Part shown: piece after piece, positions 2,736 to 64,000 of the stretch
How positions within the stretch are numbered: position 1 is the stretch's first letter
Layout: every line of letters begins with the position of its first letter
Assembly (NCBI GenBank): GCA_016931175.1
Contig: JAFGFH010000014.1
Location: 4,553 to 68,552 of the forward strand
Direction of reading: 5' to 3'
DNA length: 64,000 nucleotides
Source of the DNA: Nanobdellota archaeon
Lineage (GTDB): Archaea; Nanobdellota; Nanobdellia; Tiddalikarchaeales; Tiddalikarchaeaceae
The notes under the pieces: generated by a model
The model's database searches: none
Told to the model about the DNA's origin: nothing
The model's input: only the letters and a program-made list of their open reading frames with translations
Translations under genes and position numbers: made by a program

Positions 2736-5312
2736 TTAAGTAATTAAAACAATTATTTGGTTTATAAAATTAACTAATAATTCAAAGAGGGAGACTTCGT
2801 CAAAGTAGTAAATTCCTTTACTATCCTCTTCTGTTGGCACAACTACCACACTGAATTGTTCAACAAGGTAATCCTCTGGGTTGTTAACATTATTCATTGT
2901 CAAAGTGAAGCTTATCTCTCCGCTTATAACGGGGTAAACGTCAATGTAAGTAACGAAGTCTGATAATGGAGGAACTGTTACAGTTAAAGTATTTGACTCT
3001 GACACTGTGAAGCGGGCGTAGCCGTTATCATAATTCAAAACCAGATTATAAGTTTGGAACTCGTTCAAAGGATTATTTATTGTGAAATTTATGGTTCCAG
3101 AATAAGTGTTGCCTGAAACTAAGAGTCCTGGAGGCAGTTCAACACTAACCTCGCTCGGCGTGTAATAACTCCTTGCCCAAGTATTATTAGATAAACAGTA
3201 ATAAGCGCCTTTAACAATTCCTGTAGCAACGTTGGTATCAACTCCTCCAGCATCACTAACCTGGTCGTTGCAGTCAAATAATTGCCCGCTTGAACAGTAC
3301 AAACTATTACTAATGTTCCCGCTGCTCATTGCAAAACCATTATAACAGCAGCTGCTTTGCCCGAGCCAGTCATCACTAGTCCCGTTGTTCCCGCAGCAAT
3401 AAGGACTCTCACCTGTGTTGTAATTTGGAATCCAAGACCAAGTCGTTGACGCGTTCACGCATAAACTGTAAGTATTCTCAGGATAAGAAGAGCAGTCAAT
3501 ATCAGGGGTTTCACAATACATGCCATAATCCTCCAAGCAGACTCCATCTATTAAACCGCAGTAAATTATTGAACCATTAAAGCAGGCGCCTGAACTATTA
3601 AAGAAAGTATCAAAGGCACCGTCATCACCGCAGCACGCAGCTATCAAATCACCGCTCCTGCCGCTGTTCCATGAAAAATCTAGTGCATCAAGATAAAAAT
3701 CACTATCCTGGTAGTATGATATGAAGTTCCAATTATCCAAATCAGTGCATGTGCCGTAAAAGCCCAGGTTGCTTCCAATTAATACATTATCTTTGTAAAC
3801 ACTCCATGACGAAGCACAGTCATAAATTACTTTATAATAATGCCATAATCCGTCTTTCTGATTCTTTGATTCCAATGTCTTAACCACACCATCATAGTAA
3901 AAGAGTTGGGAACTGCTCCAGTATAATCTAAGATTTCCTCCTCCTGAACCAGAAACCCATAGCCTGTTTTCACCAGAACCTCCTGGCATATTCTTCATCC
4001 AGAAATCAAACGTTCCAGACGCCTGGTTCTGGGTAGTAACACTGACTCCGAAATCACCATTTGTTGCACTCGTATGAAGCATGTGATAAACCTTTTCATG
4101 ACCATCCATTTGTTCAACAACTTCATTAGTTCCGTAATCAGTTCCATAAAGAACCCATCCTGAAGCTATACCTTCACCATTATTATCATAAGTGAATGAA
4201 TAAGTTGCAGGATAATTTGAGTTGTTAAACCAAGTATAGGAATAATCCTCACATAGTGTTTGATTAAAATCTAAAGGATGGAATGTTGCATATCCCTGAT
4301 AGCAGAAACTATTAGTTGTGCTTATACTATTATTATAAAAATTATCATACGCACCGTCATCACCGCAGCAGGATGCATTCGTTCCCGTTGTTGTTCCATA
4401 AAACCAGTCATAACCGTAAATAGTGCAAAGATTTTCACTGTCATCTAATCCATTAATGTAATACTCTGCGTTGTAGCAGAAACTTCCAGTATTCAAAGTT
4501 CCGTTGTAGAAAGTGTCATAAACGCTGTCATCACCGCAGCAAGAAGGAACAGTGTTGTTCGCGTTCAAAGTATTCCAGTCTTTATTCACTGCATCAATCC
4601 ATAAGTAATGGTTGGATGACGCGGAGGATATGACTGCTCCAGTTCCAAATAATTGATTCGTGGCTCCCAGAGTGCCCCAGTCACCGTACAAATTGCACGT
4701 TACTGGACTATTATCATCAAAGGTTACTTCAAAGGTTGAACTCGTGTTGTCAAATTCTACATTAATGTAGTGCCACTGGTTTGCGATTACTGTTCCTACT
4801 AGGGTCATGCCTGCGCCTGCGCCCTCAGCGCACGCAATATCTGACGTGATTATTATTGCTCCCAGGCTCGCAGTCCCGAATGCTAGAACAGGGCTCGCAC
4901 CTGCTGCTCCATTAGATAATAATTCTGCAATTCCGAAGGCGTTGCCAGGGTCTGCCATCCTAAACCAGAAACTCCAATTGCCTTTGGCCTGATTAAAATT
5001 AGCCGTTGCGGACAAGTATTTCTCATTATCAGGGTCAGCATCATTATCCCAGAACTCGTAAACCTTAGCGTGCCCGTCAACTTCATCAACTACGTAACCG
5101 TAACCAGGGTCCGCGCTGCCCCATAGCATGAAACCAGTCGGATTAATCGTGCCATTAGGGTAATCAAAGGATTCAGTAGCATTATAGTGAGAGTTGTTAA
5201 TCCAGTCAAAACCGCTGGACGTGCAAGCAGAAGCAGAAGTATCTTCAGCGAATGTTGCAAAACAAGGGCTAATAAGGATTATAAATATAAAGAAATACTT
5301 CAACCTCCCCAT
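2736..5312 (-). CDS. Secreted cysteine-rich surface protein with two ConA/LamG-like lectin-like domains and four CCGDDGAYD-type repeats
   Basis: ORF track gives 2736..5372. Start chosen at the internal Met (MGRLKYFFIFIILISPCFATFA signal peptide), which also avoids overlap with the structured RNA at 5346-5620. Repeats SCCGDDSVYDTFYN, SCCGDDGAYDNFYN, ACCGDDGAFDTFFN, YCCGNNGTSDDW. Two similar roughly 200 aa domains each containing DGH(A/E)KVY. Confidence 0.65.
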   Translation of the reverse strand: MGRLKYFFIFIILISPCFATFAEDTSASACTSSGFDWINNSHYNATESFDYPNGTINPTGFMLWGSADPGYGYVVDEVDGHAKVYEFWDNDADPDNEKYLSATANFNQAKGNWSFWFRMADPGNAFGIAELLSNGAAGASPVLAFGTASLGAIIITSDIACAEGAGAGMTLVGTVIANQWHYINVEFDNTSSTFEVTFDDNSPVTCNLYGDWGTLGATNQLFGTGAVISSASSNHYLWIDAVNKDWNTLNANNTVPSCCGDDSVYDTFYNGTLNTGSFCYNAEYYINGLDDSENLCTIYGYDWFYGTTTGTNASCCGDDGAYDNFYNNSISTTNSFCYQGYATFHPLDFNQTLCEDYSYTWFNNSNYPATYSFTYDNNGEGIASGWVLYGTDYGTNEVVEQMDGHEKVYHMLHTSATNGDFGVSVTTQNQASGTFDFWMKNMPGGSGENRLWVSGSGGGNLRLYWSSSQLFYYDGVVKTLESKNQKDGLWHYYKVIYDCASSWSVYKDNVLIGSNLGFYGTCTDLDNWNFISYYQDSDFYLDALDFSWNSGRSGDLIAACCGDDGAFDTFFNSSGACFNGSIIYCGLIDGVCLEDYGMYCETPDIDCSSYPENTYSLCVNASTTWSWIPNYNTGESPYCCGNNGTSDDWLGQSSCCYNGFAMSSGNISNSLYCSSGQLFDCNDQVSDAGGVDTNVATGIVKGAYYCLSNNTWARSYYTPSEVSVELPPGLLVSGNTYSGTINFTINNPLNEFQTYNLVLNYDNGYARFTVSESNTLTVTVPPLSDFVTYIDVYPVISGEISFTLTMNNVNNPEDYLVEQFSVVVVPTEEDSKGIYYFDEVSLFELLVNFINQIIVLIT

Positions 5313-5345
5313 ATTATTAATAAGAAGTGTAGCGGTTTTAAAAAA

Positions 5346-5620
5346 TGTAGTGGAGGGAGCTCCTAAGCACAACCATGCATCCCAGTGAACTTAACCAAAC
5401 ACTTTGCTCCACCCTGCTACCTCACGAACACCGAAGAGGATAACTTATAGCTGCTCCCGTCAAGGCCTGACTCTTTCATTAACATCAAGGTCCCGTGAGA
5501 CAAGGCTTCGACGCGCGGTGTAAGGGGTTCTCTAAGGTGCGAAGCCACACTCAGGTATTCAGCTCTGCCAGCAACTTGCAGCGAGGGGTTTCGTTAAAAC
5601 CCAGCCTATCCCTCCAAAAA
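5346..5620 (-). ncRNA. Candidate signal recognition particle RNA (7S/SRP RNA)
   Basis: Non-coding island of about 270 nt, visibly GC-richer than its surroundings. Terminal helix GGAGGGA (5352-5358) pairs with TCCCTCC (5609-5615), as in archaeal SRP RNA helix 1. The minus strand carries GUCAGGCC-UUGAC-GGGAGCAGC, resembling the helix 8 apex CAGGCCC-GGAA-GGGAGCAA. Several internal hairpins, e.g. GGGUUU-CGUUA-AAACCC. Strand and exact ends uncertain. Confidence 0.45.
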
Positions 5621-17180: not shown

Positions 17181-18755
17181 TCATGAAATATCCACTGAAG
17201 GTGTGTCTCCTCCAGTAACTGCACCAATAGTGTTAAGTCCTAAACCATATTCTCCTAGGACATCAGTTAATCCTTCTGCAACGCTTCTGCCCGTGTCGCC
17301 GAAGTCGTTCAAGTCAACGCCTGTGAACCTGAAAACTAAGTCAAAAACTGGCTGAAGGTCTCCTGCTTGTGCTGATTGCACCGCGCTCATTGTGGTTGAA
17401 GCTAACTCTTCAACGTCTAAGCTAACAGAGGTAACATAACCCCATAAGAAGAATATTACGCATATTGCTGCGACTACGTAAGCAATTATTGTGCCAAGAA
17501 GAGGAATTGCTTGGACGTAAAAAGAGATGAGTATTGCACCTATTGTTCCAAGTATTGCGATTATTAATAGAACTATTGGTATCCACAACTCTGCTGCGTG
17601 CAGCGGGCCTCCTCCGAAAAACGCCCAAATGCTTGGAACAAAACCGAATCCTATTATTAAAGCCCACGCGATAATAGTTGCTTTAATGTCAAGCTTGCCT
17701 CTCGGTATTTTTCCTTCAATTTTTTTAAGCTTGTTTTTTAAATCATCAACATCTTTTGAACCACCGCTTCCTGTTGGGCTTACTGTTGGGAGTACTTTTT
17801 GTATTTTTGTAATAACTATAGTATTGGGCGCACTGGCTACTGGAGTCACTGCAGAAGGAAGATTTTTTGAAGCAGTTCCTGCAGCTGTTTTAATTGCTGC
17901 ACTCGCCATTCCAGCTGTTGCTGCTCCAGCAGCAGTTTGAAATCCAGTGCTCGCGGCAGCAGCGCCAATTGCTGCTCCTGCAACTGCGCCGCCAATTGCA
18001 GCACCAGCTGCTCCTACACCAGCACCAGGGGAAGATTTTCTTTTAAACTGCTCATTAACTAATTCATTCCTTCTTTTTCTAAGATTTAATAAAGAATCTA
18101 GCATGACTTGATTCCCTTTAGCGCTCATTTCATTTATTCTCTCAAATTTTCCAGTGCGCTTTTGCTCATCACCAATTTCTAATAATTCTTTTTCAATTTC
18201 ATTTAAACTCATATCCTTAGCAGGCTTATACCTTTTTTCATAAGAATAAAGCTCTCCCTCTGTATTAAACTTGTTTTGCAAACCCTTACTAAAATTATTA
18301 ATGCTGGTTTCTAAGTTTTGGATAAGAACTGCGTTTTTTGTCGGAGTATCACATGCTCTTTGTAACTCATTTAACTTATTCATAACATTTTCCAAGGCTT
18401 TTTTAGAATCAGTGGTTAATTCTATACGCAGTATTATATTTAATATATCATTAATGTTATCGCTTATACGTGATAATGTGAGAAAATAAGGTCTTAAAAC
18501 TGCAGTATATTCATTATTTAATATGTTTGGGTTGTCCTTCTTTAATTCATTAAATTCAATCCTTAATGGATTTACTCTGGATATCATAATTATGCTGTTT
18601 TGCAAAAGCCTTTCAACCTGATTAATAGTATTAACCTTTTTTTCTGAAATTATTTTGTTTAAGTTATTAAAAGCATCATTGGTGGCTTCCGTGGTTTCAA
18701 GAATTGTTGCTTTAAGATTTTCTAATTTTGTTTCAAGAACATCTTCATTAACCAT
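17181..18755 (-). CDS. Membrane protein with N-terminal coiled-coil region, central Gly/Ala-rich low-complexity linker and C-terminal transmembrane helices
   Basis: 524 aa. AGVGAAGAAIGGAVAGAAIGAAAAS linker encoded by a local GC-rich patch at 17.9-18.0 kb. Hydrophobic helices in the C-terminal third. Confidence 0.55.
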   Translation of the reverse strand: MVNEDVLETKLENLKATILETTEATNDAFNNLNKIISEKKVNTINQVERLLQNSIIMISRVNPLRIEFNELKKDNPNILNNEYTAVLRPYFLTLSRISDNINDILNIILRIELTTDSKKALENVMNKLNELQRACDTPTKNAVLIQNLETSINNFSKGLQNKFNTEGELYSYEKRYKPAKDMSLNEIEKELLEIGDEQKRTGKFERINEMSAKGNQVMLDSLLNLRKRRNELVNEQFKRKSSPGAGVGAAGAAIGGAVAGAAIGAAAASTGFQTAAGAATAGMASAAIKTAAGTASKNLPSAVTPVASAPNTIVITKIQKVLPTVSPTGSGGSKDVDDLKNKLKKIEGKIPRGKLDIKATIIAWALIIGFGFVPSIWAFFGGGPLHAAELWIPIVLLIIAILGTIGAILISFYVQAIPLLGTIIAYVVAAICVIFFLWGYVTSVSLDVEELASTTMSAVQSAQAGDLQPVFDLVFRFTGVDLNDFGDTGRSVAEGLTDVLGEYGLGLNTIGAVTGGDTPSVDIS

Positions 18756-28854: not shown

Positions 28855-30411
28855 ATGAAAAAACAGTATTATTTTTTTATTATTTCATTGATTGTTTTGT
28901 CTTCTGGTTTTGCTGATTCTTCATCAGAGGCTATGACTTATTCAGTTCCAGGCTCTGAAGGTGTTGTTGTAGACTCGTACCAAATTAGGGATGATATTTC
29001 TTGTTCTGTTTCCCAGGACGTTATTGATGCCGTCCAGTCCTTTTTAGGTGATAATTTCAACCTTTCAAGTTACGCTTACAGTAATTACAGTGACAGTTAT
29101 TGTTATTTTTATAATGATTATGAAAATATTTATATTAATTTCATATTCAAAGAGAGCGAGAGTGATTACAAGGGTAAACAGGTTAGTTTCTCTTTTTCAA
29201 CATCCCAAGTTTATGATTTTAATTCAGTCTTCTCTGATTTAGAGAACAAAGTCTTAGGTTATACTTTAAAACAGAAATACGTTGATTATTTAATCAGCGG
29301 CGTTGATGAAGAGTACTATGTTACTATTTCTAATAATTATGATGTTAAGAATGGCTGTGAATTGTTGAGGAATTTTTATAATTCACTAACAGGGGAGAAG
29401 TATTTTGAGGAGGATGAGTATTACTGCAGTATTGTTGCAAAGGTGAAGACTTCAGAGTTGAAATCATTGGTTGATGACAAGGTGGGTTACGTTTACTATT
29501 ACACTGATGATTTAAGCTTCACGTTTTCAGGCTATTTTGAAGGAAGCTTTGATTTAGAACAATTATATAATATTCTTGATTGTGATTTGAGCAAGAATAA
29601 TTATTATTATCCCGAGTTTGATTCTGATTGTTATGGCATATATAAGGATAAGCCAAGGATTTATTTCTCAAAGAGTGAGAGTTTAGGTGATTACTGGGTT
29701 AACTTGTACGTTTATGGTATTATTGGTGGCAAAGCACAGTTTAACTTTAATGCTTACGGTGAAGATTTAAGCCTGGCGTCCGCTCAAGCATGGGTTAATA
29801 ATCTTTTAAGCTCTTATTTCCCTTCTTATTCTTTAAATTTAGAGCTTAAAGAAGAGTATTATTCCACATATATTAGTGGAGAGAGTTTAGTTGAAGATTT
29901 CACCTTTGACGCAAGTGTTTTAATTAGTTTAGATTCAAGGCAGGAGCAGATGAACACTTATTATGAAGGGGATAATTTATGGATTACTTTATCCGAACCT
30001 TATATTCAGATAAGGCCAAGTATTGTTCTTTACAAAACATCTTCTGAGATTATGCCTTACCCTTACTGGCAGCAAACAATGGTTATTACCAGTGATAAAG
30101 TTTTTTCTTCCATAACTGTTGATGATAATGATGAATCGCTCGCTGTTGAAGAATTGAATAGTTTCGTGTCTCCTTTTATTGCTCCTGGAGACTGGGTTCT
30201 TGATATGAGCGTGTCAGGTCATTATTATATAATGCCTCTTGCTGAAGCAGGAGGAGTTGATGAGGCAGCAATAATCCAATCCTCTGCAGTTTCAGAAACA
30301 GGAGTAAGGGATGCTTTTTCAACCAATTATGATGTTTTTAATGAATTAGAAGAGACTGAGCAGGAAAATAAGCAAAGCTTCTGGGATTGGGTTTTAAGCC
30401 TTTTTAAATAA
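28855..30411 (+). CDS. Secreted Tyr/Asp-rich protein with signal peptide
   Basis: MKKQYYFFIISLIVLSSGFA signal peptide. 518 aa, acidic and Tyr-rich. Confidence 0.55.
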   Translation: MKKQYYFFIISLIVLSSGFADSSSEAMTYSVPGSEGVVVDSYQIRDDISCSVSQDVIDAVQSFLGDNFNLSSYAYSNYSDSYCYFYNDYENIYINFIFKESESDYKGKQVSFSFSTSQVYDFNSVFSDLENKVLGYTLKQKYVDYLISGVDEEYYVTISNNYDVKNGCELLRNFYNSLTGEKYFEEDEYYCSIVAKVKTSELKSLVDDKVGYVYYYTDDLSFTFSGYFEGSFDLEQLYNILDCDLSKNNYYYPEFDSDCYGIYKDKPRIYFSKSESLGDYWVNLYVYGIIGGKAQFNFNAYGEDLSLASAQAWVNNLLSSYFPSYSLNLELKEEYYSTYISGESLVEDFTFDASVLISLDSRQEQMNTYYEGDNLWITLSEPYIQIRPSIVLYKTSSEIMPYPYWQQTMVITSDKVFSSITVDDNDESLAVEELNSFVSPFIAPGDWVLDMSVSGHYYIMPLAEAGGVDEAAIIQSSAVSETGVRDAFSTNYDVFNELEETEQENKQSFWDWVLSLFK

Positions 30412-42669: not shown

Positions 42670-43262
42670 AATTCTTTTATCACCCCTTCAGGTCCGGGGT
42701 TAAAGCATAAAGTGTTTCCTATCATTTCTTCCTGCCCTTGACATTCATGAACGTGGCCGCAGCAGCAAAGCCTTGGCTGGTTCTTTTTTATCCACTCTCC
42801 TATGGCAAAACTTCCTATGTGTAATCCATTCCTTGTCTTGTCAAGTTTTGTATTCTTAGGAGGCGTGTGGCTGACTAATACTGTAATATTATCTCCGTAT
42901 TTATCAAGTTTATTTCTGAACTCTTCATCTGTTAACTCGTAAGGAGTGTTGAAAGGGCTTATGCTTCCCCCTCCAATTCCAAGAAACCTAATCTCTAAGT
43001 CCTGGTAAACGTCGTCTTCAATAATTAGGATATTATCGTACTCTTCAGTAGCTTCATTTACGAACTCAGGAGTTTCATTATTCCCTGGTATTAAAAGAAG
43101 TTTTTTCATTTTTTTTAACTCACTTATTACTTCTCCAAAACCTTCTCCTAATCTGCTTAAATCACCAGCGCATACCGCCAAGTCTGCTTTCCTGCTCTTC
43201 TCTACTAGTTTCTTTGCAGTTTTTACATCCCCGTGCACGTCCGTGAAAAATAATACTTTCAT
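42666..43262 (-). CDS. Metallophosphoesterase (YfcE/MJ0936-like)
   Basis: DVHGD, GD...GNNE, GHVH motifs. 4-nt overlaps with both neighbours. Confidence 0.7.
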   Translation of the reverse strand: MKVLFFTDVHGDVKTAKKLVEKSRKADLAVCAGDLSRLGEGFGEVISELKKMKKLLLIPGNNETPEFVNEATEEYDNILIIEDDVYQDLEIRFLGIGGGSISPFNTPYELTDEEFRNKLDKYGDNITVLVSHTPPKNTKLDKTRNGLHIGSFAIGEWIKKNQPRLCCCGHVHECQGQEEMIGNTLCFNPGPEGVIKEL

Positions 43263-45124
43263 TTCAGCACCCTTATTTCTTCTCCCAAGTTTTTCGCATT
43301 AACTAACTTCTTTCCCACGTCGCTCTTATTTGAAACTTTTATTGAACCGTTCTTGCTGACCGTTGCAGTTAGCAAATAATCATCATCTAAGTATATGTCA
43401 ACGTTCGCGCCCTTTAAGGAGTAGTCGAGGCTTATCTCAATGCTTCTCTTTCCGAATTTAATATCATATTCTAAACTCTTCTTCTCGCGGTTAACTTCTT
43501 TCATGACTTTTTCCTTGTCCATTTCTCTGACTTGTATTCTTGCACCAATTCTCTTCTCAAGTTTTTCAATATTAACTCCTTTCCTGCCTATTATTTCAGG
43601 AATGTTCTCTTTAGGAACCCGTATTTCAATGCTGTCCTCTGAAGGCATGCTTATTGACAAAGGTATGTTGCTTGGCAATTCTTTCTCTATTCTCTCTTTT
43701 AACACCTCGCTGGCAACTTGTCTTGCAACACTCGTTGTTTTGATTCCTTTAACTGGAACAACTACTGTTTGTTCGCCGAAGGTGTACATCTCGTATACTA
43801 GTTCTCCGCTAAGGAAGTCTTTAACTTCTACGAGCGGCCTTGCAAGGTCTGCCTCTGTCATACCGCTTGGAACTCTGACAGTTATTCCAACTTCTAATAC
43901 TCTTCCTATCTGCCCTTTTTCTATGAATATTACTGTGTCTATGATGCTCGGCACCATTCCTAATTCTACTCTTCCTATGAATCTTTGTATTGCATCTATT
44001 GGATTAGTTGCGTGAACTACTCCAACCATTCCGACACCGCTTAATCTCATGTCTTTGAAGAGTTCAAAGTCTTCACTGTTTCTTATCTCGTCAAAGATTG
44101 TATAATCAGGCCTTGACAATAATAGTATGTCATGAATTTCTGCATTGCTTGCCTTGTTCTTTGAGTACTGTGTTATCTCAGGCGGGAGTATTAAATCCCT
44201 TGGAGCTTCAATGGTTTTAACTATCTTATTATTTGTTAAGTAAAATGTTGCCAGTGCTTGGCAGAACGTGCTTTTGCCATTTCCTGGTGCTCCCGCGACT
44301 AGTATTCCTTCTGCTTTTAACTTAAGCCTGTCTCTTAATTTGTCAACTATGTTGTAATCATTTAATGTTAGTATTTTTACAGGGCGCACTGCAGTTATCT
44401 CCCACCCGTCGCTTAAAGGAGGCCTCGTCATTACTATCCTGTAATTCCTGAACTGGACTATTGTCGAACCTCTATTTTCTATCTCTAAGAAACTGTTAGA
44501 GTCCATCTTCGTCTTCTCTACTATTTCTTTGCTTAATTCTTCCACCTCTTCGCTTGTGAGTTTTTTATCGCTGAGTTCAACAAAAATCCACTCTCCAGGC
44601 TTTCCCTTCTTAGCTTTTGGGGTTGTCTCCTCCCTTAAGTGAACGCTCATTGTAGTATCATCAAAGTATTTCTCTATACTGAGCCCTTTCACTGTCTTGT
44701 CGAACATTATTAGTTGTGATTTTACTCCCATGGCTTGAGCAATTTCATACTGCACCTTATCCCCTGTTAACAGTGTTGCCTCATTAGTTTCTGCGAGCTC
44801 CCTGATTATTGCATCTATCTCTCCCTTCTTAGCATACCTTATTTGTGAAGGCAAGGGCCGTGACCCTCCGAACTCTAGTATTATTTTACCTTTATTGTCC
44901 AAATCCTTTAATTCCTTAATCTCATCAATACCTAATAATCCAGTGGGGCGCTTGCTGTTAGCCTGGTGCTCTAACTCTGCCATTACAGCATTATGTATTA
45001 ATATTTTGCCTTTAAGTTCCCCTTTCTTAATCTTCTCACTCACTAAACCTTCTATTATAATACTAGTATCTGGAACGTAAACACTATCACTTTTAGTAGT
45101 TCTTTTAATCGTGCTCTCCCTCAT
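43259..45124 (-). CDS. PIN-domain/PilT-type ATPase with C-terminal KH domain (COG1855 family)
   Basis: Walker A GAPGNGKST. N-terminal PIN-like region. C-terminal KH domain IIGRKGVNIEKLEKRIGARI. Confidence 0.8.
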   Translation of the reverse strand: MRESTIKRTTKSDSVYVPDTSIIIEGLVSEKIKKGELKGKILIHNAVMAELEHQANSKRPTGLLGIDEIKELKDLDNKGKIILEFGGSRPLPSQIRYAKKGEIDAIIRELAETNEATLLTGDKVQYEIAQAMGVKSQLIMFDKTVKGLSIEKYFDDTTMSVHLREETTPKAKKGKPGEWIFVELSDKKLTSEEVEELSKEIVEKTKMDSNSFLEIENRGSTIVQFRNYRIVMTRPPLSDGWEITAVRPVKILTLNDYNIVDKLRDRLKLKAEGILVAGAPGNGKSTFCQALATFYLTNNKIVKTIEAPRDLILPPEITQYSKNKASNAEIHDILLLSRPDYTIFDEIRNSEDFELFKDMRLSGVGMVGVVHATNPIDAIQRFIGRVELGMVPSIIDTVIFIEKGQIGRVLEVGITVRVPSGMTEADLARPLVEVKDFLSGELVYEMYTFGEQTVVVPVKGIKTTSVARQVASEVLKERIEKELPSNIPLSISMPSEDSIEIRVPKENIPEIIGRKGVNIEKLEKRIGARIQVREMDKEKVMKEVNREKKSLEYDIKFGKRSIEISLDYSLKGANVDIYLDDDYLLTATVSKNGSIKVSNKSDVGKKLVNAKNLGEEIRVLK

Positions 45125-49532: not shown

Positions 49533-50566
49533 ACAAGATTTACTTGTTCTATTTAATGTGCATTGGTATCAGTCTTACTTTCTTATCAACGTATTTCAGC
49601 ATATTCTTTCCTGATTATTCAAACAGTATTTTATATATAGTTACTATAATGTTTGTTTCAAGTATTTTGTTTTTAATGTTCCTTGAAGGCAAGGTTAAAA
49701 TATTTGCAAGCAAATTAATGGTTTTGTCCTCTTTCTTCTTGCTGTTATATTTCAGTTCTATAATAGTTAAAAACTTGTTTTTTCTTACTATTTTTGGGGA
49801 AGAGGTAATATCAGTTTTTTCTGCTTTCTTTTTCCTGTGCTCGGTTTCTTTAATGATGATTGCTTCTCTCAGTTTGAGGAATGAAGCATTTTTTAACAAT
49901 AATGGTTTAATAGCATTAATCTTCTCTCCTGTTATTATTTACTCTTTATGGGTTTTGTTTAATAATGCCTTGTTTAGTACATCAGAGATATTCTCTCAGG
50001 TTCCTTTAAGGCTTTTTATAATATTTTTCACTAGTATTTACTCATTTATTATTTTTTACAACCTCTTCTTTTCAGCAAGAAAAGTTTTAGCTTTGAAGGA
50101 CAAGTATTTCATAATAGCAGCAGGTTTTGCTGTCTTATTCTTATCTTCAGGTTTTAGGATTGCAAACTTCTTTTTTGAATTGTCTTCTATTTTTTCAGTT
50201 ATTGGAAGCTTCACTATTTGTTTCGGTTTAATGATTGAGTCAAGCTTAAACCTTCACCAGTACATGCTTAACGTAATGGTTGACTCTTTGTCTGAAAAGA
50301 AAAAGAAGGATTTCCTTAAATTTCTTAAGAATAGTTGCAGCAAGAGGAAGGATTTAATAATTAATATAAGTAATAAAGTAGTTATTGTTGACAATCCTTC
50401 TTTGTCTAACATTGATGAGAAACAGTCTTATGATAAGGTTATTATCTCTTCTTACAAGTGGTTCAGGAAGCACGTTAAAGGCAGCAGCGAATTGTTGAAT
50501 AATTTGAAAGTGTTTTACAACAAGCAGGCTTTCATGAGCAAGAAGCTTAACTTAATGCTTATTTAA
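49529..50566 (+). CDS. Polytopic membrane protein
   Basis: 345 aa. About 8 hydrophobic helices followed by a basic soluble tail. Confidence 0.5.
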   Translation: MNKIYLFYLMCIGISLTFLSTYFSIFFPDYSNSILYIVTIMFVSSILFLMFLEGKVKIFASKLMVLSSFFLLLYFSSIIVKNLFFLTIFGEEVISVFSAFFFLCSVSLMMIASLSLRNEAFFNNNGLIALIFSPVIIYSLWVLFNNALFSTSEIFSQVPLRLFIIFFTSIYSFIIFYNLFFSARKVLALKDKYFIIAAGFAVLFLSSGFRIANFFFELSSIFSVIGSFTICFGLMIESSLNLHQYMLNVMVDSLSEKKKKDFLKFLKNSCSKRKDLIINISNKVVIVDNPSLSNIDEKQSYDKVIISSYKWFRKHVKGSSELLNNLKVFYNKQAFMSKKLNLMLI

Positions 50567-52218
50567 CTGCTGTCCTGCTCGTAAGTTTTTTTATTCTTAA
50601 TGCAGAATTCTGCTTTTCCAAGCTCGCTTCCCAGATACATTAAATGGGAAGGATTTATTGAAGTTCCAGCCTCTGCTATATTATTGTATAAATCTTTTGC
50701 TGTTTTTCCTTTGAAGCTTTCAATCCCTGAGTGGTCTATTGGGTGTAAGAGTTTCACTATTATCTCTTCTTTTTCTACTTGTATTGTATAATCTCCTCTG
50801 GCATCTTTGAACTCGCTGCTTGTTTTGTAATACTTTTTCAGCATGTCTTCAACTTGTTTGTAATAGTGAGCGTATATTTGAGCGCTTCCTGAAACAATTG
50901 TTAGTATTCCAGGCTCTACTTTTATCCCTTCTGCTATCTCTTTTTGTATTGCAGCGCAGCCGTAAGCGTTGTCAGGCCAGCCTTGTGTCATGTCGTGGCT
51001 TCTGAAGAATACGAAGAGGTTTAGTTTCTCATCCTGAACCATTGCTTGTAATAATACCAGGCACGGGCTGCTTTTATGCTTCCTCATTAGTTCGTCCTGC
51101 ACGTGCCAAGTGATTGCAACGCAAGCTTTAGAGTAAATATCTCTTTTCAACACTTCTATTATGTCGCTGATTTGGTCTACTTCAGCGTAGCCTTTCACGT
51201 AATATTTAACGTTAGCGTCTATCCAAGGGCCTTTGCCGAACTCGTAATCTTTATACTCTGTCGTGTTTACTAATTCTTTTATCGGCTCGCTTGGTGTAAT
51301 ATAAGCGCGTAATTTGTTGCCGTAAGTGTAAGCCTTTCCTTCCGGAAGCAAAGGGCTTAGTATTTCTTTCTTGTAAGCCTCTATCTTTTCAATTGTTAAA
51401 GGCACTAAGAAGGGATTAATGCTTAAGTCAGTGTTTTGAGGGTCGTGTATTACTACAGTCATATTGTTTATCTCTTTCACCCACCTGTCAGTGTTAGCGT
51501 TCATTAAGTTTTTTCTGCCGTAAGTGTTTATTGCGTGTATCATTTTTATCCAAGCGTCTGGTATGTTGGAGCCGTGAACTATTATTGGTCCGCCTTCGTA
51601 AGGTTTGGTTTCTTCCTGTTTTGTGTAATCGTAATTTGATGGGTTGGAATAAGCTTCTTCTTTCTCTTTCTTCATTATTTCATTAGCTTTTGCAATCTTG
51701 TCCTGCAGTGAAGCATTTTTCATCTCAGTATTCAAGTCGATTAATTTCACATTATCTATAATTTTTTTTATCTCACTCGTTGGTATGTTCTTGTCAAAGT
51801 TTACTGCAGTCTCGAATCCCGGTATCTTCCTGTCCTCGTTTATTCCTTTTGTGAAGAAAGCTCTTAAAGCGTTCGCGCTGGTTAGTTCACTCTTAGTCTC
51901 GCACCCGTCCTTGCTCGCGTACTCTTCCCCTAATATTATTATATATCTTATGTAGGGGTTGCCGAGGAGGTTCCTGACCATGCCTTCTATTCCCGCTGGT
52001 GTGTAGAAATTAGTGGCTATTGCGAGATTATCCTTGTCCAACTGGGGGAGTACTGCGTCTCTCATCGTCCATAAGAATGTGACTGCGTAATTTGCAGGAG
52101 TAACTCTTAACTCTTTTGAGTGAGGATATGCTATCCTGTCTCTTACAGCGACTGGCCAGCCTTTCTCACCGTTGCTGCCAATCTGTGATTTAATAGAATC
52201 TAATATCTTCTCCTTCAT
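50563..52218 (-). CDS. Thymidylate synthase (ThyA)-family protein; the N-terminal ~330 aa region aligns only weakly to ThyA or not at all
   Basis: C-terminal region aligns to ThyA core motifs: ITWHVQDEL (as AWNVGEL), SPCLVLLQ (catalytic Cys, as PCHAFFQF), RSHDMTQGWPDNAYGCAAIQ (as RSCDVFLGLPFNIASYALL), GSAQIYAHYY (as GDTHLYSNH). The C-terminal ~220 aa carries these core motifs; residues ~200-330 show weak similarity to the ThyA N-terminal core, and the first ~200 aa have no recognisable motif. Confidence 0.65.
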   Translation of the reverse strand: MKEKILDSIKSQIGSNGEKGWPVAVRDRIAYPHSKELRVTPANYAVTFLWTMRDAVLPQLDKDNLAIATNFYTPAGIEGMVRNLLGNPYIRYIIILGEEYASKDGCETKSELTSANALRAFFTKGINEDRKIPGFETAVNFDKNIPTSEIKKIIDNVKLIDLNTEMKNASLQDKIAKANEIMKKEKEEAYSNPSNYDYTKQEETKPYEGGPIIVHGSNIPDAWIKMIHAINTYGRKNLMNANTDRWVKEINNMTVVIHDPQNTDLSINPFLVPLTIEKIEAYKKEILSPLLPEGKAYTYGNKLRAYITPSEPIKELVNTTEYKDYEFGKGPWIDANVKYYVKGYAEVDQISDIIEVLKRDIYSKACVAITWHVQDELMRKHKSSPCLVLLQAMVQDEKLNLFVFFRSHDMTQGWPDNAYGCAAIQKEIAEGIKVEPGILTIVSGSAQIYAHYYKQVEDMLKKYYKTSSEFKDARGDYTIQVEKEEIIVKLLHPIDHSGIESFKGKTAKDLYNNIAEAGTSINPSHLMYLGSELGKAEFCIKNKKTYEQDSS

Positions 52219-56558: not shown

Positions 56559-57584
56559 ATGGGTGTTGCATTAAGCGGTTTGTTCGAGCCGGTTGAGATA
56601 AGCATTGCTAATCTTAGTGGTAAGAAGGTAGCAGTTGACGCTTATAACACGCTTTACCAGTTCGTGTCAACAATACGCCAGTACGACGGCAGCCCATTAA
56701 GTGATTCAAAAGGCAATATTACCAGTCACTTAAGTGGTTTATATTATAGGACTATGAATGTTATGAAGCAGGGAGTTAAGCCTTGCTTCGTCTTTGACGG
56801 CAAACCCCCTGCTTTTAAGAAGCAGACTGTGAGCGACAGGATTAATGTTCGCGAGCAGGCGAGGAAGGCTTACGAGAAGGCTTTGGAAGAAGAAGATTAC
56901 GAGAAGGCTAAAAGCAAGGCTATGCAGAGCGCGAGGCTTACCTCTGAAATGGTTGATGAAGCAAAAGAGTTGCTGACTTACATGGGTGTTCCTTGGGTGC
57001 AGGCGCCGAGCGAGGGAGAGGCGCAAGCTGCTCATATGTGTTTAAAAGGGGATGTTTACGCGAGTGTGAGCCAGGATTATGACAGTTTATTGTTCAAAAC
57101 TCCTTTGCTTGTCCGCAACTTGAATATTACTGGGAAGAGGAAGGTTCCTAATAAAAACATTTACGTTCAGGTTAATCCCGAGAAGATTGTTTTAAAAGAT
57201 GAATTGAACAGGTTAAAACTATTTCACGACCAGTTAATCATGCTTGGAATTCTCGTCGGCACGGATTATAATCCCAAGGGCGTCTTCGGTTTGGGTCCTA
57301 AGAAGGCTTACAAGTTAGTCTTGGAAAAGAAGAGTTTTGATGCAGTATTCAGTGATGTTGAATGGGATTTTGATATTAGTCCTAAAGAGATATTTGACTT
57401 CTTCAAGAATCCTCCAGTAATTGATGATTACAAACTGAACTGGAGGTCTCCTAATCCTGACAAGATATTTGAATTATTATGCGAGAAGCACGAGTTCAGC
57501 CAGACCAGAGTGAGCAACGCTTTAGGCAAGCTCGCTAATTTAAGAAAAAAGGAAGGACAAACAGGACTTGACAAGTTTTTTTAA
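56559..57584 (+). CDS. fen: Flap endonuclease FEN-1
   Basis: N-terminus MGVALSGL...GKKVAVDAYNTLYQF. Acidic active-site residues and helical arch. 341 aa. Confidence 0.9.
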   Translation: MGVALSGLFEPVEISIANLSGKKVAVDAYNTLYQFVSTIRQYDGSPLSDSKGNITSHLSGLYYRTMNVMKQGVKPCFVFDGKPPAFKKQTVSDRINVREQARKAYEKALEEEDYEKAKSKAMQSARLTSEMVDEAKELLTYMGVPWVQAPSEGEAQAAHMCLKGDVYASVSQDYDSLLFKTPLLVRNLNITGKRKVPNKNIYVQVNPEKIVLKDELNRLKLFHDQLIMLGILVGTDYNPKGVFGLGPKKAYKLVLEKKSFDAVFSDVEWDFDISPKEIFDFFKNPPVIDDYKLNWRSPNPDKIFELLCEKHEFSQTRVSNALGKLANLRKKEGQTGLDKFF

Positions 57585-58165
57585 GCATCTTTTATCTTTC
57601 GTATGAAATAATATAATGAGCCTCTTACAATATCTGATTTAACCCTTTTTTCCTTTTCAGCTTCTTCATCTATCTTGTCTATTAATGTTTGAGGTAATAA
57701 AATTAGTTTATTGAATTCTTTTGAGCTCTCGTTTTCTTCAGGAAACCTTAAAGGAGTTTTGAAGTATAAGTGGCCGAATAATGAGTGTCTTATTAATTCG
57801 CTGAAGTTTATATTATGTGTTTTATAATACTCGTCGCTGAACTCTTTAACGCTTTTAGGAAACCTGTATAATCTGTTTTTTGTAAAATTAAACTCTGGCG
57901 CAGGACCTAAGACCCCCTCCAAGGCATGTATGCTTCCCCGGATATTGTCAGAGATATTGTCTTGAGATATTAGGTTTTCACAGTTCATTAATGTGTGCAA
58001 ACTGTTCGGTTTTTGAAGAGTGTATTCTTTTGGTGTTATAACCTCGTACTTTGCCAGGAACAAGCCTAATCTCGTGAACTCTGATGCATTAGTTATAATT
58101 CCCCAACAAGTAATATATTCTAGTTGGTGCTCGTCTATGAAAAAAGTCTTCATATTATTAGTCAT
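57581..58165 (-). CDS. Hypothetical protein (194 aa)
   Basis: ORF with protein-like composition. Confidence 0.45.
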   Translation of the reverse strand: MTNNMKTFFIDEHQLEYITCWGIITNASEFTRLGLFLAKYEVITPKEYTLQKPNSLHTLMNCENLISQDNISDNIRGSIHALEGVLGPAPEFNFTKNRLYRFPKSVKEFSDEYYKTHNINFSELIRHSLFGHLYFKTPLRFPEENESSKEFNKLILLPQTLIDKIDEEAEKEKRVKSDIVRGSLYYFIRKIKDA

Positions 58166-59297: not shown

Positions 59298-59365
59298 AGA
59301 TTAGGCTTTAAAACTTTTTAAGCAATTAGAAAGTCTTTTAAATAGATTTTTGGCTATTAGAATAC

Positions 59366-61441
59366 ATGTCTGAGGAGAATAATAAGATACTGCCAGTAGT
59401 GTCTAAACAGCTGCTGGGAGAGAATAAAGAAATAACTCATGAGTATGTTAAAAAAGTGAAAAGGAAAGGTTTTGATAAGGACTTTGATGATGTTCCTGAG
59501 GATGAAAGAGTTACTAAACTAACACTTAGAACCCCAGCTAATCTCCCAAGCTTTGGTTCAATAATAATACCTTATGATATTTACGCTTCTTACAACTTCG
59601 GGTGCGAATTGTATGACAAAACAGGTTTAGGCCGTTTCTTAATCGCAGACTGGATTGATTCAGCCAAGAACAGATACCCTGGTTGGGAGTTCCCAAAGAA
59701 CGTGAACTACAGGGTTAGAATAGATTTACTTAACCCTTCTGAAATATTCTTTGAAGACATTCCAAATCCTGAATATGAAGAGATGCGAGATCTTATAAGA
59801 AGTATGGGAGGTAATACTATTGGAAAACCTAAGTACCCTCTTTTCCTTGAAGGCAGCCATGGCACAATGATTGGATTATCCAAAGGAAATGTTGAGAATA
59901 TCGTTGAACTTGCTGATTTAGAGAAGAAGATTAAAGGATTGGATGCGGTTAAGCTGCCGAAAGGGATAAGTTCAAATTACGCTGTTGACAAGGACGGCGC
60001 AAAGTATTACACCTTCAACGCAGACCACATACCTTTAATGGACAAATTAAGAATGGTTGCCAAGTTAGCGCTTAACCAGATAAGAAAAAATCACTCCTTG
60101 GATGATTCAGACATCTTATTAACCAGTAAGGATGAGAAAGAATTATCTGACTTGCTTGACGATAACAAAACGTTGAATAAGAAGGTGAGTGAATTAGAAC
60201 CCGTTGAGTTCTTGAGTTTGTACAGCGTTCTCGTCTCAAACATTTTGGACTTGGATAATACTATTACTATTTTTGAAAGGTATAAAGGAACTACTCATGG
60301 ACGCTTTGATTGGGATTCTGAAAATAGAAAGTATATTATTCCTCAAGCAGGAGTTTACGGCATACTAATTAAGGACTTTGATTTAAGCAGTCTTGAATAC
60401 TTCGGTTATAAAATGGGTTTTAAGAAGGAGAAGCCTCGATTATTCCTTCCCTTGCTTTTGAAAAATCTTGAAATTTTCGAAGACCCTCATATTTTTAATA
60501 AGTACAGGAATCCACTTCAGATAATGAGAGACTCAATTAATGCAGAGCCTGACTTTCCGGTTGTTCCAGGTTTAATGTTTAATTCAGAGACTGTTTTTGA
60601 TACAGATTATGATAGTGAAAAGAAGGAAATAGTTAATATTAAGATTAAGAATCACAGAGTCTCAGGAGAGTTGTTTTTAAGGCAGGCATTGAAGACTGCT
60701 TTGAAGAACAAGGACTCGAAATCAATTGAATTCCTAATAGCACTGCATAATTATATTAACAACAGTGACGAGCCAATTAATTACTCATCTGATAAAGCAG
60801 ATTCAAGAGAGGTGCTTGAGGCCACGGGAGAGTTCGCCACATTTAATGGACAACATACCGGTTTTTTCTACGGCAACGGCCTGCATACAATAAACAGCTT
60901 CGAAGCTAAAATTTTGCTTTCATTTTATAATCTTGAACCAGTTCAGGAATTAGACATGGAGGCTTTGAATATGGTTCTTAGAAGAGATGAGCATAGTGTT
61001 GAATCGCACGCGCTTTACACACTCAACTCTTACGGCAGTGATTGGAATAGGTTTTTTGACTACCAAGCAGGGCAGGAATTTCATCAAAGAGCATGGCCGT
61101 CCACTAAGAACTTATCATTTGAGAAGTACAAGTTCTTGTTCGAGTACTTGGCAGCTCCAGAGATTAAGAAGAACTTTGAACTCTTAGGGCTTGAACCAGG
61201 AGCAGGAGAGGAGGAGATAAGAACTGCTTGGAAACAGAAGTTGTTCCAGCTCCATCCTGATATTACTAAGGAAGGCGTTGATTACAAGCAGTTCCAGGAC
61301 GTTGTTGACGCCAAGACTAAGCTTATGAGTACGAAGATTGATGAGGAAAAATTTAAACTGCTTAAATTCTTGGGAAAACCGTTAGAGTTCGTTGAGTACA
61401 GAATGCCTGAACCCATAGGAATGCTAGAAGCGAAGGATTAA
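59366..61441 (+). CDS. Large hypothetical protein with C-terminal J-domain (DnaJ-like HPD motif)
   Basis: 691 aa. C-terminal EEEIRTAWKQKLFQLHPDITKEG...FQDVVDAKTKL matches J-domain helices II/III with the invariant HPD. Confidence 0.55.
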   Translation: MSEENNKILPVVSKQLLGENKEITHEYVKKVKRKGFDKDFDDVPEDERVTKLTLRTPANLPSFGSIIIPYDIYASYNFGCELYDKTGLGRFLIADWIDSAKNRYPGWEFPKNVNYRVRIDLLNPSEIFFEDIPNPEYEEMRDLIRSMGGNTIGKPKYPLFLEGSHGTMIGLSKGNVENIVELADLEKKIKGLDAVKLPKGISSNYAVDKDGAKYYTFNADHIPLMDKLRMVAKLALNQIRKNHSLDDSDILLTSKDEKELSDLLDDNKTLNKKVSELEPVEFLSLYSVLVSNILDLDNTITIFERYKGTTHGRFDWDSENRKYIIPQAGVYGILIKDFDLSSLEYFGYKMGFKKEKPRLFLPLLLKNLEIFEDPHIFNKYRNPLQIMRDSINAEPDFPVVPGLMFNSETVFDTDYDSEKKEIVNIKIKNHRVSGELFLRQALKTALKNKDSKSIEFLIALHNYINNSDEPINYSSDKADSREVLEATGEFATFNGQHTGFFYGNGLHTINSFEAKILLSFYNLEPVQELDMEALNMVLRRDEHSVESHALYTLNSYGSDWNRFFDYQAGQEFHQRAWPSTKNLSFEKYKFLFEYLAAPEIKKNFELLGLEPGAGEEEIRTAWKQKLFQLHPDITKEGVDYKQFQDVVDAKTKLMSTKIDEEKFKLLKFLGKPLEFVEYRMPEPIGMLEAKD

Positions 61442-61469: not shown

Positions 61470-62729
61470 ATGATTTTCGCTGATTTGCACATTCACTCCA
61501 AGTACAGCCGCGCTACTAGCAAGGACATGGATATTAAGTCCTTGTCAAAGTTTGGTGTTATGAAGGGTTTGGATATTATAGGCACTGGTGATATTACTCA
61601 CCCGGAGTGGATTAAAGAGGTGAAAAGTGAAACTGAGTACTTGGGCAATGGTTTGTATAAGAGCAAATATAACCAGATGCGCTTCATGCTTTCAAGCGAG
61701 ATTGCAACTATATACTCGCAGGATAATGAGGTGAAAAGAGTTCACCACGTTCTAGTTTTTCCGGACTTTGAAATAGTTGAACAGTTCAATGAAGTTTTGA
61801 GAAAAAATTTGTTTGATAAGAATAAGAAGTGTAATCTTGAATCAGATGGGAGGCCAATCATTGGCATGACGAGTGTAGAATTGGCAGAGGCGTTGTTTGA
61901 AGTAAGTGACAAGGCGCTTTTGATTCCTGCGCATATCTGGACGCCGTGGTTTTCATTATTCGGAAGCATGAGCGGTTTCAACAAAATAGAAGACTGCTAC
62001 GAGAAGTATGCGAAGAAGATTTACGCTTTAGAGACTGGACTCTCAAGCGACCCTTTAATGAACTGGAGAATAGACAACATAAGAGATTATGCATTGGTTA
62101 GCAACAGTGACTGCCACGGCCCTTTCGTTGACAGGATAGGCAGGGAGTCTAATGCATTCAACGGCAGTATTGAAGAATTCTCATTCAATAAGATGAGGGA
62201 GGCTTTGAAAAATAAAAACTTGGCTTTCACTGTAGAGGTTGACCCTAGTTATGGCAAGTACCACTTTGACGGCCACAGGAAATGCAATGTGTGTTATACT
62301 CCGAAAAATTCAATAGAACACAATAATAAGTGTCCTGTGTGCGGGAAGACATTAACTATTGGCGTTCTGCACAGGGTTGAAGAATTAGCAGACCACGAAG
62401 AGGGTTACAAGCCTGCAAAAGCTGTTCCTTTCGAGTACCATATTCCTTTGATTGAAATCATAAGCAAATTGTTAGGCAAAGGTATTAAGACAAAAAAAGT
62501 AATTGAAGTTTATGATGCTTTGATTAAGAAGTTCGGCAATGAGTACAACATCATGTTTAACGCTCCGATTGCTGATTCAGAAGCAGCTTTTCAGGGGTTA
62601 GGGTTTGTGATTAAATCATTAAGGGATAAGAGTTTAAAGGTAGAACCAGGGTATGATGGGGTTTATGGAAAACCATTAATTAATGAAATTAATTCATTAA
62701 AACCTCAAATGAACTTGTCAGATTTTTAA
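61470..62729 (+). CDS. PHP-domain nuclease with zinc finger, Endonuclease Q (EndoQ)-like
   Basis: N-terminus FADLHIHSKYS is a PHP-type motif. CNVC...CPVCG zinc finger around residue 280. Size 419 aa is like EndoQ. Confidence 0.55.
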   Translation: MIFADLHIHSKYSRATSKDMDIKSLSKFGVMKGLDIIGTGDITHPEWIKEVKSETEYLGNGLYKSKYNQMRFMLSSEIATIYSQDNEVKRVHHVLVFPDFEIVEQFNEVLRKNLFDKNKKCNLESDGRPIIGMTSVELAEALFEVSDKALLIPAHIWTPWFSLFGSMSGFNKIEDCYEKYAKKIYALETGLSSDPLMNWRIDNIRDYALVSNSDCHGPFVDRIGRESNAFNGSIEEFSFNKMREALKNKNLAFTVEVDPSYGKYHFDGHRKCNVCYTPKNSIEHNNKCPVCGKTLTIGVLHRVEELADHEEGYKPAKAVPFEYHIPLIEIISKLLGKGIKTKKVIEVYDALIKKFGNEYNIMFNAPIADSEAAFQGLGFVIKSLRDKSLKVEPGYDGVYGKPLINEINSLKPQMNLSDF

Positions 62730-62730
62730 T

Positions 62731-64000
62731 TTATTTTTTAGAAAGAAATCCGCCGAAAGAACTTTTTCTTGACTCAGGCAATTCTTTCTTATCATCGTTG
62801 TCTTTTGCTGGGGGAAGGTCGTTGTCCGATGGCAGTTTCGGAGGAGTTGGGGAACCCATCTTTGATATTAGTTTCTCATTCTGCTGCTCTGCAACCGCGT
62901 GGTATAAGTTGTTGAAGCTGGTTGTTAAATTGAATATCTTCTCTCTTAACTCCTTAACCTGGTTTGGTTTAAGCAAATCGTTCTCTACAGTTGTCTTGAA
63001 GAATTGCAGGTATAATTGCAAGCTTAAGTTTTCAATCGCGGAATCGATTATTAAATCCCTGTCAGGCTTATTAACATCATTTATTATAGTGTTTGCTAAT
63101 TTCAAAGAAGAGTACTTCTCTCTTCCCATCTCGTGAACTGCCACATTAGGCAGCTTGCTCTTCTGCTCATCAGTCAAGTGGGATAAGTTTTTCTCCAAGA
63201 ACTCGAAGGCGTAGCCGTTGCCGTTCTCAGCCAGTGAGATGATGTCATCATACTGCGTCTCTTTTAAATAATTAGCTGCGAGAGTAGCGAGTTCGAAGGC
63301 CATATTATTTCCTAAACTCATCAGCACACACATAGCATCATTATCTTCAACCGTTGACAGTCCTATTTGGAATGCATCCTTTGCAAAATCTATAAGGTTA
63401 TTATAGCTGATGCCGTTTCTTAAACTGTGAATAGTTATCTTTGGCACCAATACCATTCCTGCCTTATTGTCATTTGTCCACTCAATCAATCTCTGAAACT
63501 CGCCGCTATTGAATACAGGCTCTGAACTGCCTTGTTCGTAAAAGTATTCTTCTGCGAAACCATTATGTTGCAATAACCACTTTGCTAAATTAAAGACCTC
63601 CTTCCCGTCTTCCAGGTTCTTGCCTTTTTCAAAGAAATATTTTAAAGTATCTATTATAATCCTAGGTATCTCTTTAATATCTGAATCAGTGAATAACTGA
63701 TCTCTTGAATCATTGAATACTCCCTTCCCTGATTCAGTGAATATTGACATTCTTGAAAGTATTGGAATAACAGCAGCGTAAGCCTCTGGAATTACTGGCT
63801 TGAACTTAATTCCTTTGATAAGCAAATCGTTCAAGTTTTTAAACTCAGGAAGCTCATTTGATTTCAAGTAATTCTTAATATACTCGTAAGCCTTTGATAT
63901 TCCAACACTGTGTATCTTCTCGCTGTATTCGAGTATGCTAGGGTCATTTGTTTTCTCCCCTATTAAGTTAAGAACCTTCTGAATATCCTTGTAATACTGA
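62731..64000 (-). CDS. Hypothetical protein, partial (reading frame stays open to the window end; the track start at 63867 is a TTG)
   Basis: Manual translation upstream of 63867 continues in frame (…QYYKDIQKVLNLIGEKTNDPSILEYSEKIHSVGISKAYEYIKNYLKSNELPEF…) with no stop up to 64000. Confidence 0.5.
   Translation of the reverse strand, partial: QYYKDIQKVLNLIGEKTNDPSILEYSEKIHSVGISKAYEYIKNYLKSNELPEFKNLNDLLIKGIKFKPVIPEAYAAVIPILSRMSIFTESGKGVFNDSRDQLFTDSDIKEIPRIIIDTLKYFFEKGKNLEDGKEVFNLAKWLLQHNGFAEEYFYEQGSSEPVFNSGEFQRLIEWTNDNKAGMVLVPKITIHSLRNGISYNNLIDFAKDAFQIGLSTVEDNDAMCVLMSLGNNMAFELATLAANYLKETQYDDIISLAENGNGYAFEFLEKNLSHLTDEQKSKLPNVAVHEMGREKYSSLKLANTIINDVNKPDRDLIIDSAIENLSLQLYLQFFKTTVENDLLKPNQVKELREKIFNLTTSFNNLYHAVAEQQNEKLISKMGSPTPPKLPSDNDLPPAKDNDDKKELPESRKSSFGGFLSKK

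Follow-up and report, generated by a model that had tools for sequence, protein, structure and literature searches.

The 64-kb window analyzed here (the whole stretch of 64,000 nucleotides, positions 4,553 to 68,552 of contig JAFGFH010000014.1 in the Nanobdellota archaeon assembly GCA_016931175.1) contains a gene for a 691-aa protein, probably a J-domain protein of class C (type III) that would recruit the cell's own DnaK to a client in a mesophilic DPANN archaeon. The DPANN are tiny-celled archaea. The protein ends in a segment with the motifs and the modeled fold of a J-domain, is conserved colinearly over its whole length in a second archaeon (relative P0002), and is encoded by a gene resident in native chromosomal DNA. 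The ~600 residues that precede the J-domain constitute, by sequence comparison, a new and extremely rare family with two detected members among ~15 billion proteins. The protein is best read as a rare yet conceptually ordinary specialized co-chaperone.

The gene and its product

The open reading frame (ORF) runs on the forward strand from an ATG to a stop codon, is a real gene, and includes the peptide quoted in the initial annotation. Its product is identical to NCBI MBN1923677.1 (P0001 in our comparisons), which comes from a 90.7-kb contig and is deposited as "MAG: J domain-containing protein [Nanoarchaeota archaeon]", MAG standing for metagenome-assembled genome. The Nanoarchaeota are a DPANN lineage. 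NCBI already carries the J-domain label; the novelty lies in the N-terminal family and in its presence in DPANN.

The protein is acidic (isoelectric point, pI, 5.4) and soluble, has a mass of 79.9 kDa and contains a single Cys. No transmembrane segment or signal peptide was detected in it (highest 19-residue Kyte-Doolittle mean 1.14), and searches for internal repeats and for paralogues found none. The start codon is supported because the N-terminus of P0002 aligns there. A TATA-like box read from the sequence is centered ~25 nt upstream of the ATG; because this spacing fits the usual archaeal promoter geometry, it suggests a leaderless or near-leaderless transcript. The features of the gene are as follows.

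59337..59344, + strand: TATA-like box, TTTAAATA, centered ~25 nt upstream of the ATG (read from sequence)
59366..61441, + strand: complete J-protein gene, 691 aa (ORF and identity to MBN1923677.1)
59366..60265, + strand: residues 1-300, conserved N-terminal block (BLASTP, alignment and windowed identity against P0002)
60266..60949, + strand: residues 301-528, weakly conserved, indel-rich middle (windowed identity 10-37%, large insertions in P0002)
60950..61162, + strand: residues 529-599, conserved, predicted-helical stretch just before the J-domain (BLASTP; helices from the low-confidence full-length model only)
61163..61381, + strand: residues 600-672, J-domain (Pfam PF00226, PDB matches, AlphaFold2 model, Foldseek, alignment)
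61253..61261, + strand: H630-P631-D632, HPD tripeptide (alignments; tblastn)
61382..61438, + strand: residues 673-691, C-terminal tail (alignments; predicted local distance difference test, pLDDT, <50)

The C-terminal J-domain

Judged by its hidden Markov model (HMM) score, its HPD tripeptide and its predicted four-helix fold, the C-terminal J-domain is genuine. The initial annotation had claimed that the ORF at 59366-61441 ends in a bona fide J-domain and had proposed a Pfam DnaJ HMM scan as a check; in that scan PF00226 matches residues 604-655 with 29.5 bits (E 7.9e-7), which passes the gathering threshold of 27.8, and PDB matches and the model fold bear the claim out as well. P0002 matches the same Pfam family independently (24.1 bits, E 4e-5). 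In a phmmer search of the 691-aa protein against all PDB sequences, every one of the 36 matches was a J-domain or a J-domain-containing protein, the best being human Hsp40 (1hdj, E 2.9e-4), and a profile built from P0001 and P0002 improved the J-domain matches to E 2e-5. Matches to NCBIfam DnaJ models are limited to the first ~55 positions of those models.

In characterized J-domains, the HPD tripeptide triggers ATP hydrolysis by Hsp70. Here it occupies residues 630-632 and is invariant in alignments of P0001, P0002, Escherichia coli DnaJ, human DNAJB1, and P0003 and P0004, two short J-proteins found in database searches (see below). A tblastn alignment over DnaJ query residues 7-35 terminates exactly at the HPD. 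Other positions invariant with respect to E. coli DnaJ and human DNAJB1 are LLG in helix I, I and A in helix II, A and L in helix III, and D...G in helix IV. Identity of the J-domain to DnaJ and DNAJB1 is 30-32%, and the P0001/P0002 family carries a 4-residue insertion between helices III and IV. Helix II contains basic residues (R619, K623 and K625), and the pI is 8.2 for the J-domain and 5.4 for the entire protein, which is no more than compatible with contact to the Hsp70 nucleotide-binding domain.

An AlphaFold2 model of residues 590-691, computed from a four-sequence alignment, predicts helix I at ~600-607, helix II at 615-629, helix III at 640-654 and helix IV at ~657-669. The initial annotation would have taken an HPD in a non-helical, low-complexity context as refutation; the model places it in the loop that joins helices II and III. 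Block-mean pLDDT is 79-82 for helices I-II, 65 for the HPD loop, 80 for helix III and 48-66 for helix IV. In a Foldseek search of this domain model against the PDB, the best 50 matches listed were all J-domains or J-domain proteins. They include 5nro_B, a DnaK-bound DnaJ J-domain, with a target-normalized template-modeling score of 0.73 and a root-mean-square deviation of 2.6 Å over 59 columns. Foldseek E-values reach only ~1e-2 because the J-domain is small.

The initial annotation had placed the domain in the last 70 residues. Its order of helix II, HPD and helix III stands, and its boundaries shift: the domain spans residues ~600-672 and is followed by a 19-residue tail. The start of this tail (residues 673-691) continues a motif shared with P0002, LGxPxE[FY][VL] (residues 669-676), and the remainder is variable, with pLDDT <50.

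A two-member family

When residues 1-598 were compared by exhaustive phmmer with 1.84 billion cluster representatives (~15 billion proteins), a sole relative was returned, P0002 (791 aa, E 4.5e-19). The 90%-identity clusters of P0001 and P0002 contain one member each. P0002 is encoded in another archaeal assembly, GCA_041643095.1, with a guanine-cytosine (GC) content of 49% versus 37% here. The two proteins are colinear throughout, their N-termini align from residue 3-5 onward, and P0002 has the same C-terminal J-domain. Because this colinearity extends over the whole protein and the two genes lie on different archaeal chromosomes, the proteins represent a real, maintained gene family.

Conservation between the two members is concentrated in blocks. 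By BLASTP the N-terminal parts share 28% identity over 318 columns (E 2e-24) and the C-terminal parts, residues 529-681, share 36% (E 1e-30). The C-terminal segment holds the J-domain with its HPD, the motif (V/I)DAKTKLM and the short post-J motif LGxPxE, while conserved motifs in residues 1-300 include LPVxSxxLLG, IPYxxYASxNFGxE, YRVxIDxxNP, IGLSxxNV...LAxLEK, LDAxxLPxGI and YxTFNxxH. Windowed identity is highest in the J-domain (43-50%), followed by residues 181-240 (40-47%) and 91-120 (43%), and is 10-37% across residues 301-528. Outside the J-domain the two proteins are 32% identical, and the better conservation of the J-domain argues for selection on its function.

Searches for further members added none. 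A word-indexed search of 5.8 billion proteins, with either the full protein or the two-sequence profile, returned the query alone; these negatives are weaker than they look, because the profile search missed P0002, which is present in that collection, and the index appears incomplete. No further member came from degenerate-pattern scans of GTDB genomes (two scans), JGI metagenomes or IMG/VR. P0003 and P0004, both short and unrelated J-proteins, were all that a J-domain profile retrieved from protein databases. A J-domain phylogeny, as proposed in the initial annotation, is unlikely to be informative given these few matches and the poor resolution of published J-domain trees.

The initial annotation reported no recognizable motif in the ~620 aa outside its J-domain, and our searches agree: Pfam, NCBIfam, PHROGs, PADLOC and the PDB gave no significant match to residues 1-599, whether single sequences or the profile were used, and phage and plasmid collections gave no tblastn match. 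A BRCT domain at residues ~190-262 was considered and rejected. The sole match, to a PARP4 BRCT chain (E 0.06, 15 bits), was judged to be due to chance, no Pfam BRCT match was found, and the low-confidence full-length model predicts no helix for KGISSNYAVDKDG, the stretch that aligns with BRCT helix alpha1.

Proposed function and presumed partner Hsp70

We propose that the J-domain (~600-672) docks on the cell's own DnaK/Hsp70 via its HPD loop and a basic helix II surface (R619, K623 and K625). Docking would trigger ATP hydrolysis, upon which DnaK would clamp onto the client. Specificity could be provided by the ~600-residue, lineage-specific N-terminal domain, which may bind a particular client or assembly or may localize the protein. 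The logic would be that of auxilin, HscB and Sec63, and not that of a general DnaJ/Hsp40.

The mechanism presupposes a DnaK in this genome, and the search for one covered ~72 kb (the window and ~8 kb downstream, from Logan contigs that add no sequence upstream) and 22 kb of the P0002 genome. Absence from ~72 kb says little about whole-genome DnaK content. KJE, the trio of DnaK, DnaJ and GrpE, is reported in roughly 60-85% of DPANN MAGs across published surveys. In one survey the share is 74.2% for Woesearchaeota MAGs and 61-86% for those of four other DPANN lineages (PMC8407392). Archaea with DnaK are mesophiles, at a mean temperature of 36.8 °C, versus 78.2 °C for archaea without it (PMC12874294). 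The proteome of the window looks mesophilic, with a low charged-minus-polar bias and a rough IVYWREL estimate of ~44 °C, in the range where archaea do possess DnaK. A precedent comes from Thaumarchaeota, for which a DnaK was predicted from an atypical J-protein encoded on a fosmid and was later confirmed (PMC3564930). In view of the DPANN surveys, the mesophilic proteome and this precedent, the default expectation is that a cognate DnaK is encoded elsewhere in the genome. The same three observations weaken the framing in the initial annotation, which stressed that many small-genome archaea lack dnaK, in which case the protein would be orphaned, acquired or repurposed; its genuine J-domain and its unrecognizable N-terminal ~600 aa are retained here.

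Several observations weigh against recruitment of an endogenous DnaK by this protein. Pfam scans and tblastn with E. coli queries detected no dnaK, grpE or canonical dnaJ in the 64-kb window, its 8-kb downstream extension or the 22-kb P0002 region. The PF00226 score of the 691-aa protein lies just 1.7 bits above the threshold, and P0002 on its own falls under it (24.1 versus 27.8 bits). In our own mapping from the alignment, two helix II residues of E. coli DnaJ, R19 and R27, correspond to E616 and Q624 here. Full-length AlphaFold2 prediction from the two-sequence alignment gave a mean pLDDT of 32.6 and a predicted template-modeling score of 0.20, and client binding by the N-terminal part is a putative role assigned by analogy only.

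Alternative explanations

The protein may have a main activity that is independent of Hsp70, exerted by an enzymatic or structural N-terminal part, with the J-domain as a regulatory or vestigial addition. Some 87% of the protein lies outside the J-domain and is conserved in blocks, and the Pfam J-domain score is marginal, both of which fit this possibility. Vestigial J-like domains, however, typically lose the HPD, whereas here the HPD and the helix I-IV core are kept in both members and the J-domain is the most conserved segment. With no catalytic family detectable by Pfam or NCBIfam in addition, we regard an Hsp70-independent main activity as unlikely.

Slightly less likely again is an orphan J-domain in a genome without Hsp70, acting either in the manner of an effector on the Hsp70 of the host cell of an episymbiont, comparable to viral J-proteins, or on a partner other than Hsp70. 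The negative result for dnaK and grpE in the ~72 kb examined is compatible with this, as is the fact that KJE goes undetected in some 15-40% of DPANN MAGs, depending on lineage. The family is also extremely rare and lineage-restricted, and strict conservation of the HPD means that some Hsp70 is probably the target. Most DPANN lineages nevertheless carry KJE, and its apparent absence is expected in incomplete MAGs. Moreover, the 691-aa protein has neither a signal peptide nor a transmembrane segment, there is no secretion-system context at either locus, and the gene sits among housekeeping genes in both genomes.

In a more specific and still less probable form of the orphan J-domain, both DPANN genomes would be without Hsp70 and the J-domain would be used on the Hsp70 of a host archaeon or bacterium, for example after delivery across episymbiotic cell-cell contact, with the N-terminal domain steering the host chaperone to a target chosen by the symbiont. 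If true, this would give viral J-proteins a cellular counterpart and provide a first molecular handle on manipulation of a host by DPANN. The finding would be important only if the genomes lack Hsp70, a situation that would leave a host chaperone as the J-domain's necessary target.

Least probable of all is a cargo gene derived from a mobile element or virus, akin to phage J-proteins that manipulate host DnaK: weak PHROGs matches (E 1.6e-4 to 6.5e-6) and several hypothetical genes flanking the J-protein gene would suit such an origin, but the PHROGs matches are confined to the J-domain, the N-terminal part is matchless in phage, plasmid and IMG/VR collections, no integrase, tRNA or repeat boundary lies nearby, GC and GC at third codon positions (GC3) are native, and P0002 is encoded between an A-type ATPase operon and a Sec61beta/NAC/ribosomal-protein cluster.

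Relation to known J-proteins

Class C J-domain proteins are best known from eukaryotes and bacteria. Like them, the 691-aa protein joins a single canonical J-domain with an HPD to an unrelated region and has neither a glycine/phenylalanine-rich (G/F) region nor DnaJ C-terminal domains. It differs from them in that the partner region is a two-member family and in that its host is a DPANN archaeon. The class accounts for about two thirds of ~280,000 catalogued J-domain proteins; roughly half of these class C proteins are annotated with a J-domain only, and many have uncharacterized regions (PMC10410713). With DnaK recruitment as the favored function, the protein would be another specialized J-protein in this very large and heterogeneous class. 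It would also mean that genome-reduced DPANN spend ~2 kb on a dedicated Hsp70-targeting factor, which implies that DnaK is required by a specific client or assembly in these cells.

In layout, the protein resembles auxilin/GAK (DNAJC6/DNAJC26), in which an N-terminal region of several hundred residues is followed by a C-terminal J-domain. The N-terminal region of auxilin/GAK binds a client or assembly and so recruits Hsp70 to a specific assembly. The resemblance is one of analogy only: outside the J-domain the 691-aa protein has no sequence similarity to auxilin/GAK and no PTEN-like or clathrin-binding region, and archaea are not known to have clathrin.

Canonical DnaJ/Hsp40 (class A, TIGR02349) shares the J-domain, at the 30-32% identity given above and with the HPD and core kept. 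Assignment to class A or B is rejected: the TIGR02349 score is 20.2 bits against a cut-off of 377.2 and covers profile positions 3-53 only, there is no G/F region and no Pfam match to DnaJ_C or DnaJ_CXXCXGXG, and the J-domain lies at the opposite end of the protein. The zinc-finger CxxCxGxG repeats are necessarily absent because the 691-aa protein has a single Cys.

DjlA (PRK09430) is a protein of ~270 aa with an N-terminal transmembrane anchor, a TerB-like domain and a C-terminal J-domain. The position of the J-domain is shared, and both family members match the DjlA J region weakly in NCBIfam (P0001 E 0.0087, P0002 E 0.017). A similar C-terminal layout is seen in P0003, whose J-domain is among the two nearest in the databases. 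Identity with DjlA itself is rejected on the basis of a score of 15.7 bits against a cut-off of 162, the length of 691 aa and the lack of a hydrophobic segment (maximum mean 1.14).

A parallel in circumstance is the thaumarchaeotal DnaJ-Fer, another atypical archaeal J-protein specific to its lineage, which likewise came to light on a genome fragment at a time when its cognate DnaK had not been seen (PMC3564930). It differs from the 691-aa protein in that its partner region is a ferredoxin, its J-domain is N-terminal and its horizontal origin is traceable (PMC3564930).

Genomic context

The window is ordinary archaeal chromosome, with genes for Cdc6/Orc1, both PolD subunits, FEN1, RPA, proteasome beta, FttA, aRF1 and aIF5A, as well as four aminoacyl-tRNA synthetases, NrdD, thymidylate kinase, signal recognition particle (SRP) RNA and two tRNAs. 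The J-protein gene has a GC content of 38.2% and a GC3 of 40.2%, equal to those of the neighboring core genes, and this composition gives no sign of recent horizontal acquisition. No integrase, tRNA, repeat boundary or viral gene was found near it. These observations, its position among core replication genes and the TATA-like box suggest that the gene is native, with no evidence of recent horizontal acquisition or of a mobile element.

The gene for P0002 lies between an A-type ATPase operon and a Sec61beta/NAC/ribosomal-protein cluster, and no neighboring genes are shared between the window and the 22-kb P0002 locus. In the present genome, the J-protein gene is followed on the same strand by another gene.

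61470..62729, + strand: TIGR00375 / MJ0043_C family gene (NCBIfam TIGR00375, 219 bits; Pfam MJ0043_C, precomputed match)

This gene begins 28 nt beyond the J-protein stop codon, and the two genes may share a transcript. It is absent beside P0002 and is not a conserved partner of the J-protein. Its product scores 219 bits against the TIGR00375 equivalog cut-off of 326.6 and has a CxxC...CxxC zinc-ribbon-like motif.

Other features of the window

Upstream of the J-protein gene, a 194-aa hypothetical protein (57581-58165, - strand) has below-threshold matches to DUF6290/RelB/aCcr1-like families (residues 101-130) and to RHH_1 (residues 157-181), and it may be a small tandem ribbon-helix-helix regulator. 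A 551-aa protein at 50563-52218 (- strand) combines an MtrA-like region, a thymidylate-synthase region that covers profile positions 105-231 only, and a PterinBD/DUF4346 region, and its gene adjoins those for thymidylate kinase and NrdD; the combination may represent a fused thymidylate synthase of unusual architecture.

For the SRP RNA at 5355-5614 (- strand), the best match in Rfam is the model Bacteria_large_SRP (66.9 bits, gathering threshold 60) in place of the archaeal SRP model from that clan. The listed TTG start of an 878-aa ORF (2736..5372) falls in the overlap with this RNA, so the true start of that ORF must lie further in; the Logan gene call is 858 aa.

Large ORFs without Pfam matches are typical of DPANN genomes. 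Those in the window with no Pfam match at E <= 0.001 are at 2736-5372 (- strand, 878/858 aa), 17181-18755 (- strand, 524 aa), 28855-30411 (+ strand, 518 aa) and 62731-63867 (- strand, 378/430 aa).

A 621-aa protein at 43259-45124 (- strand) has a PIN domain, a T2SSE/PilT-like ATPase domain and a KH domain. Same-strand genes for a metallophosphoesterase and a small AAA_18 kinase-like protein follow downstream, their stop and start codons overlapping. Finally, in the P0002 genome (locus L002, 4717-7956, + strand), subunit A of the A-type ATPase (1079 aa) contains an intein carrying a LAGLIDADG homing endonuclease.

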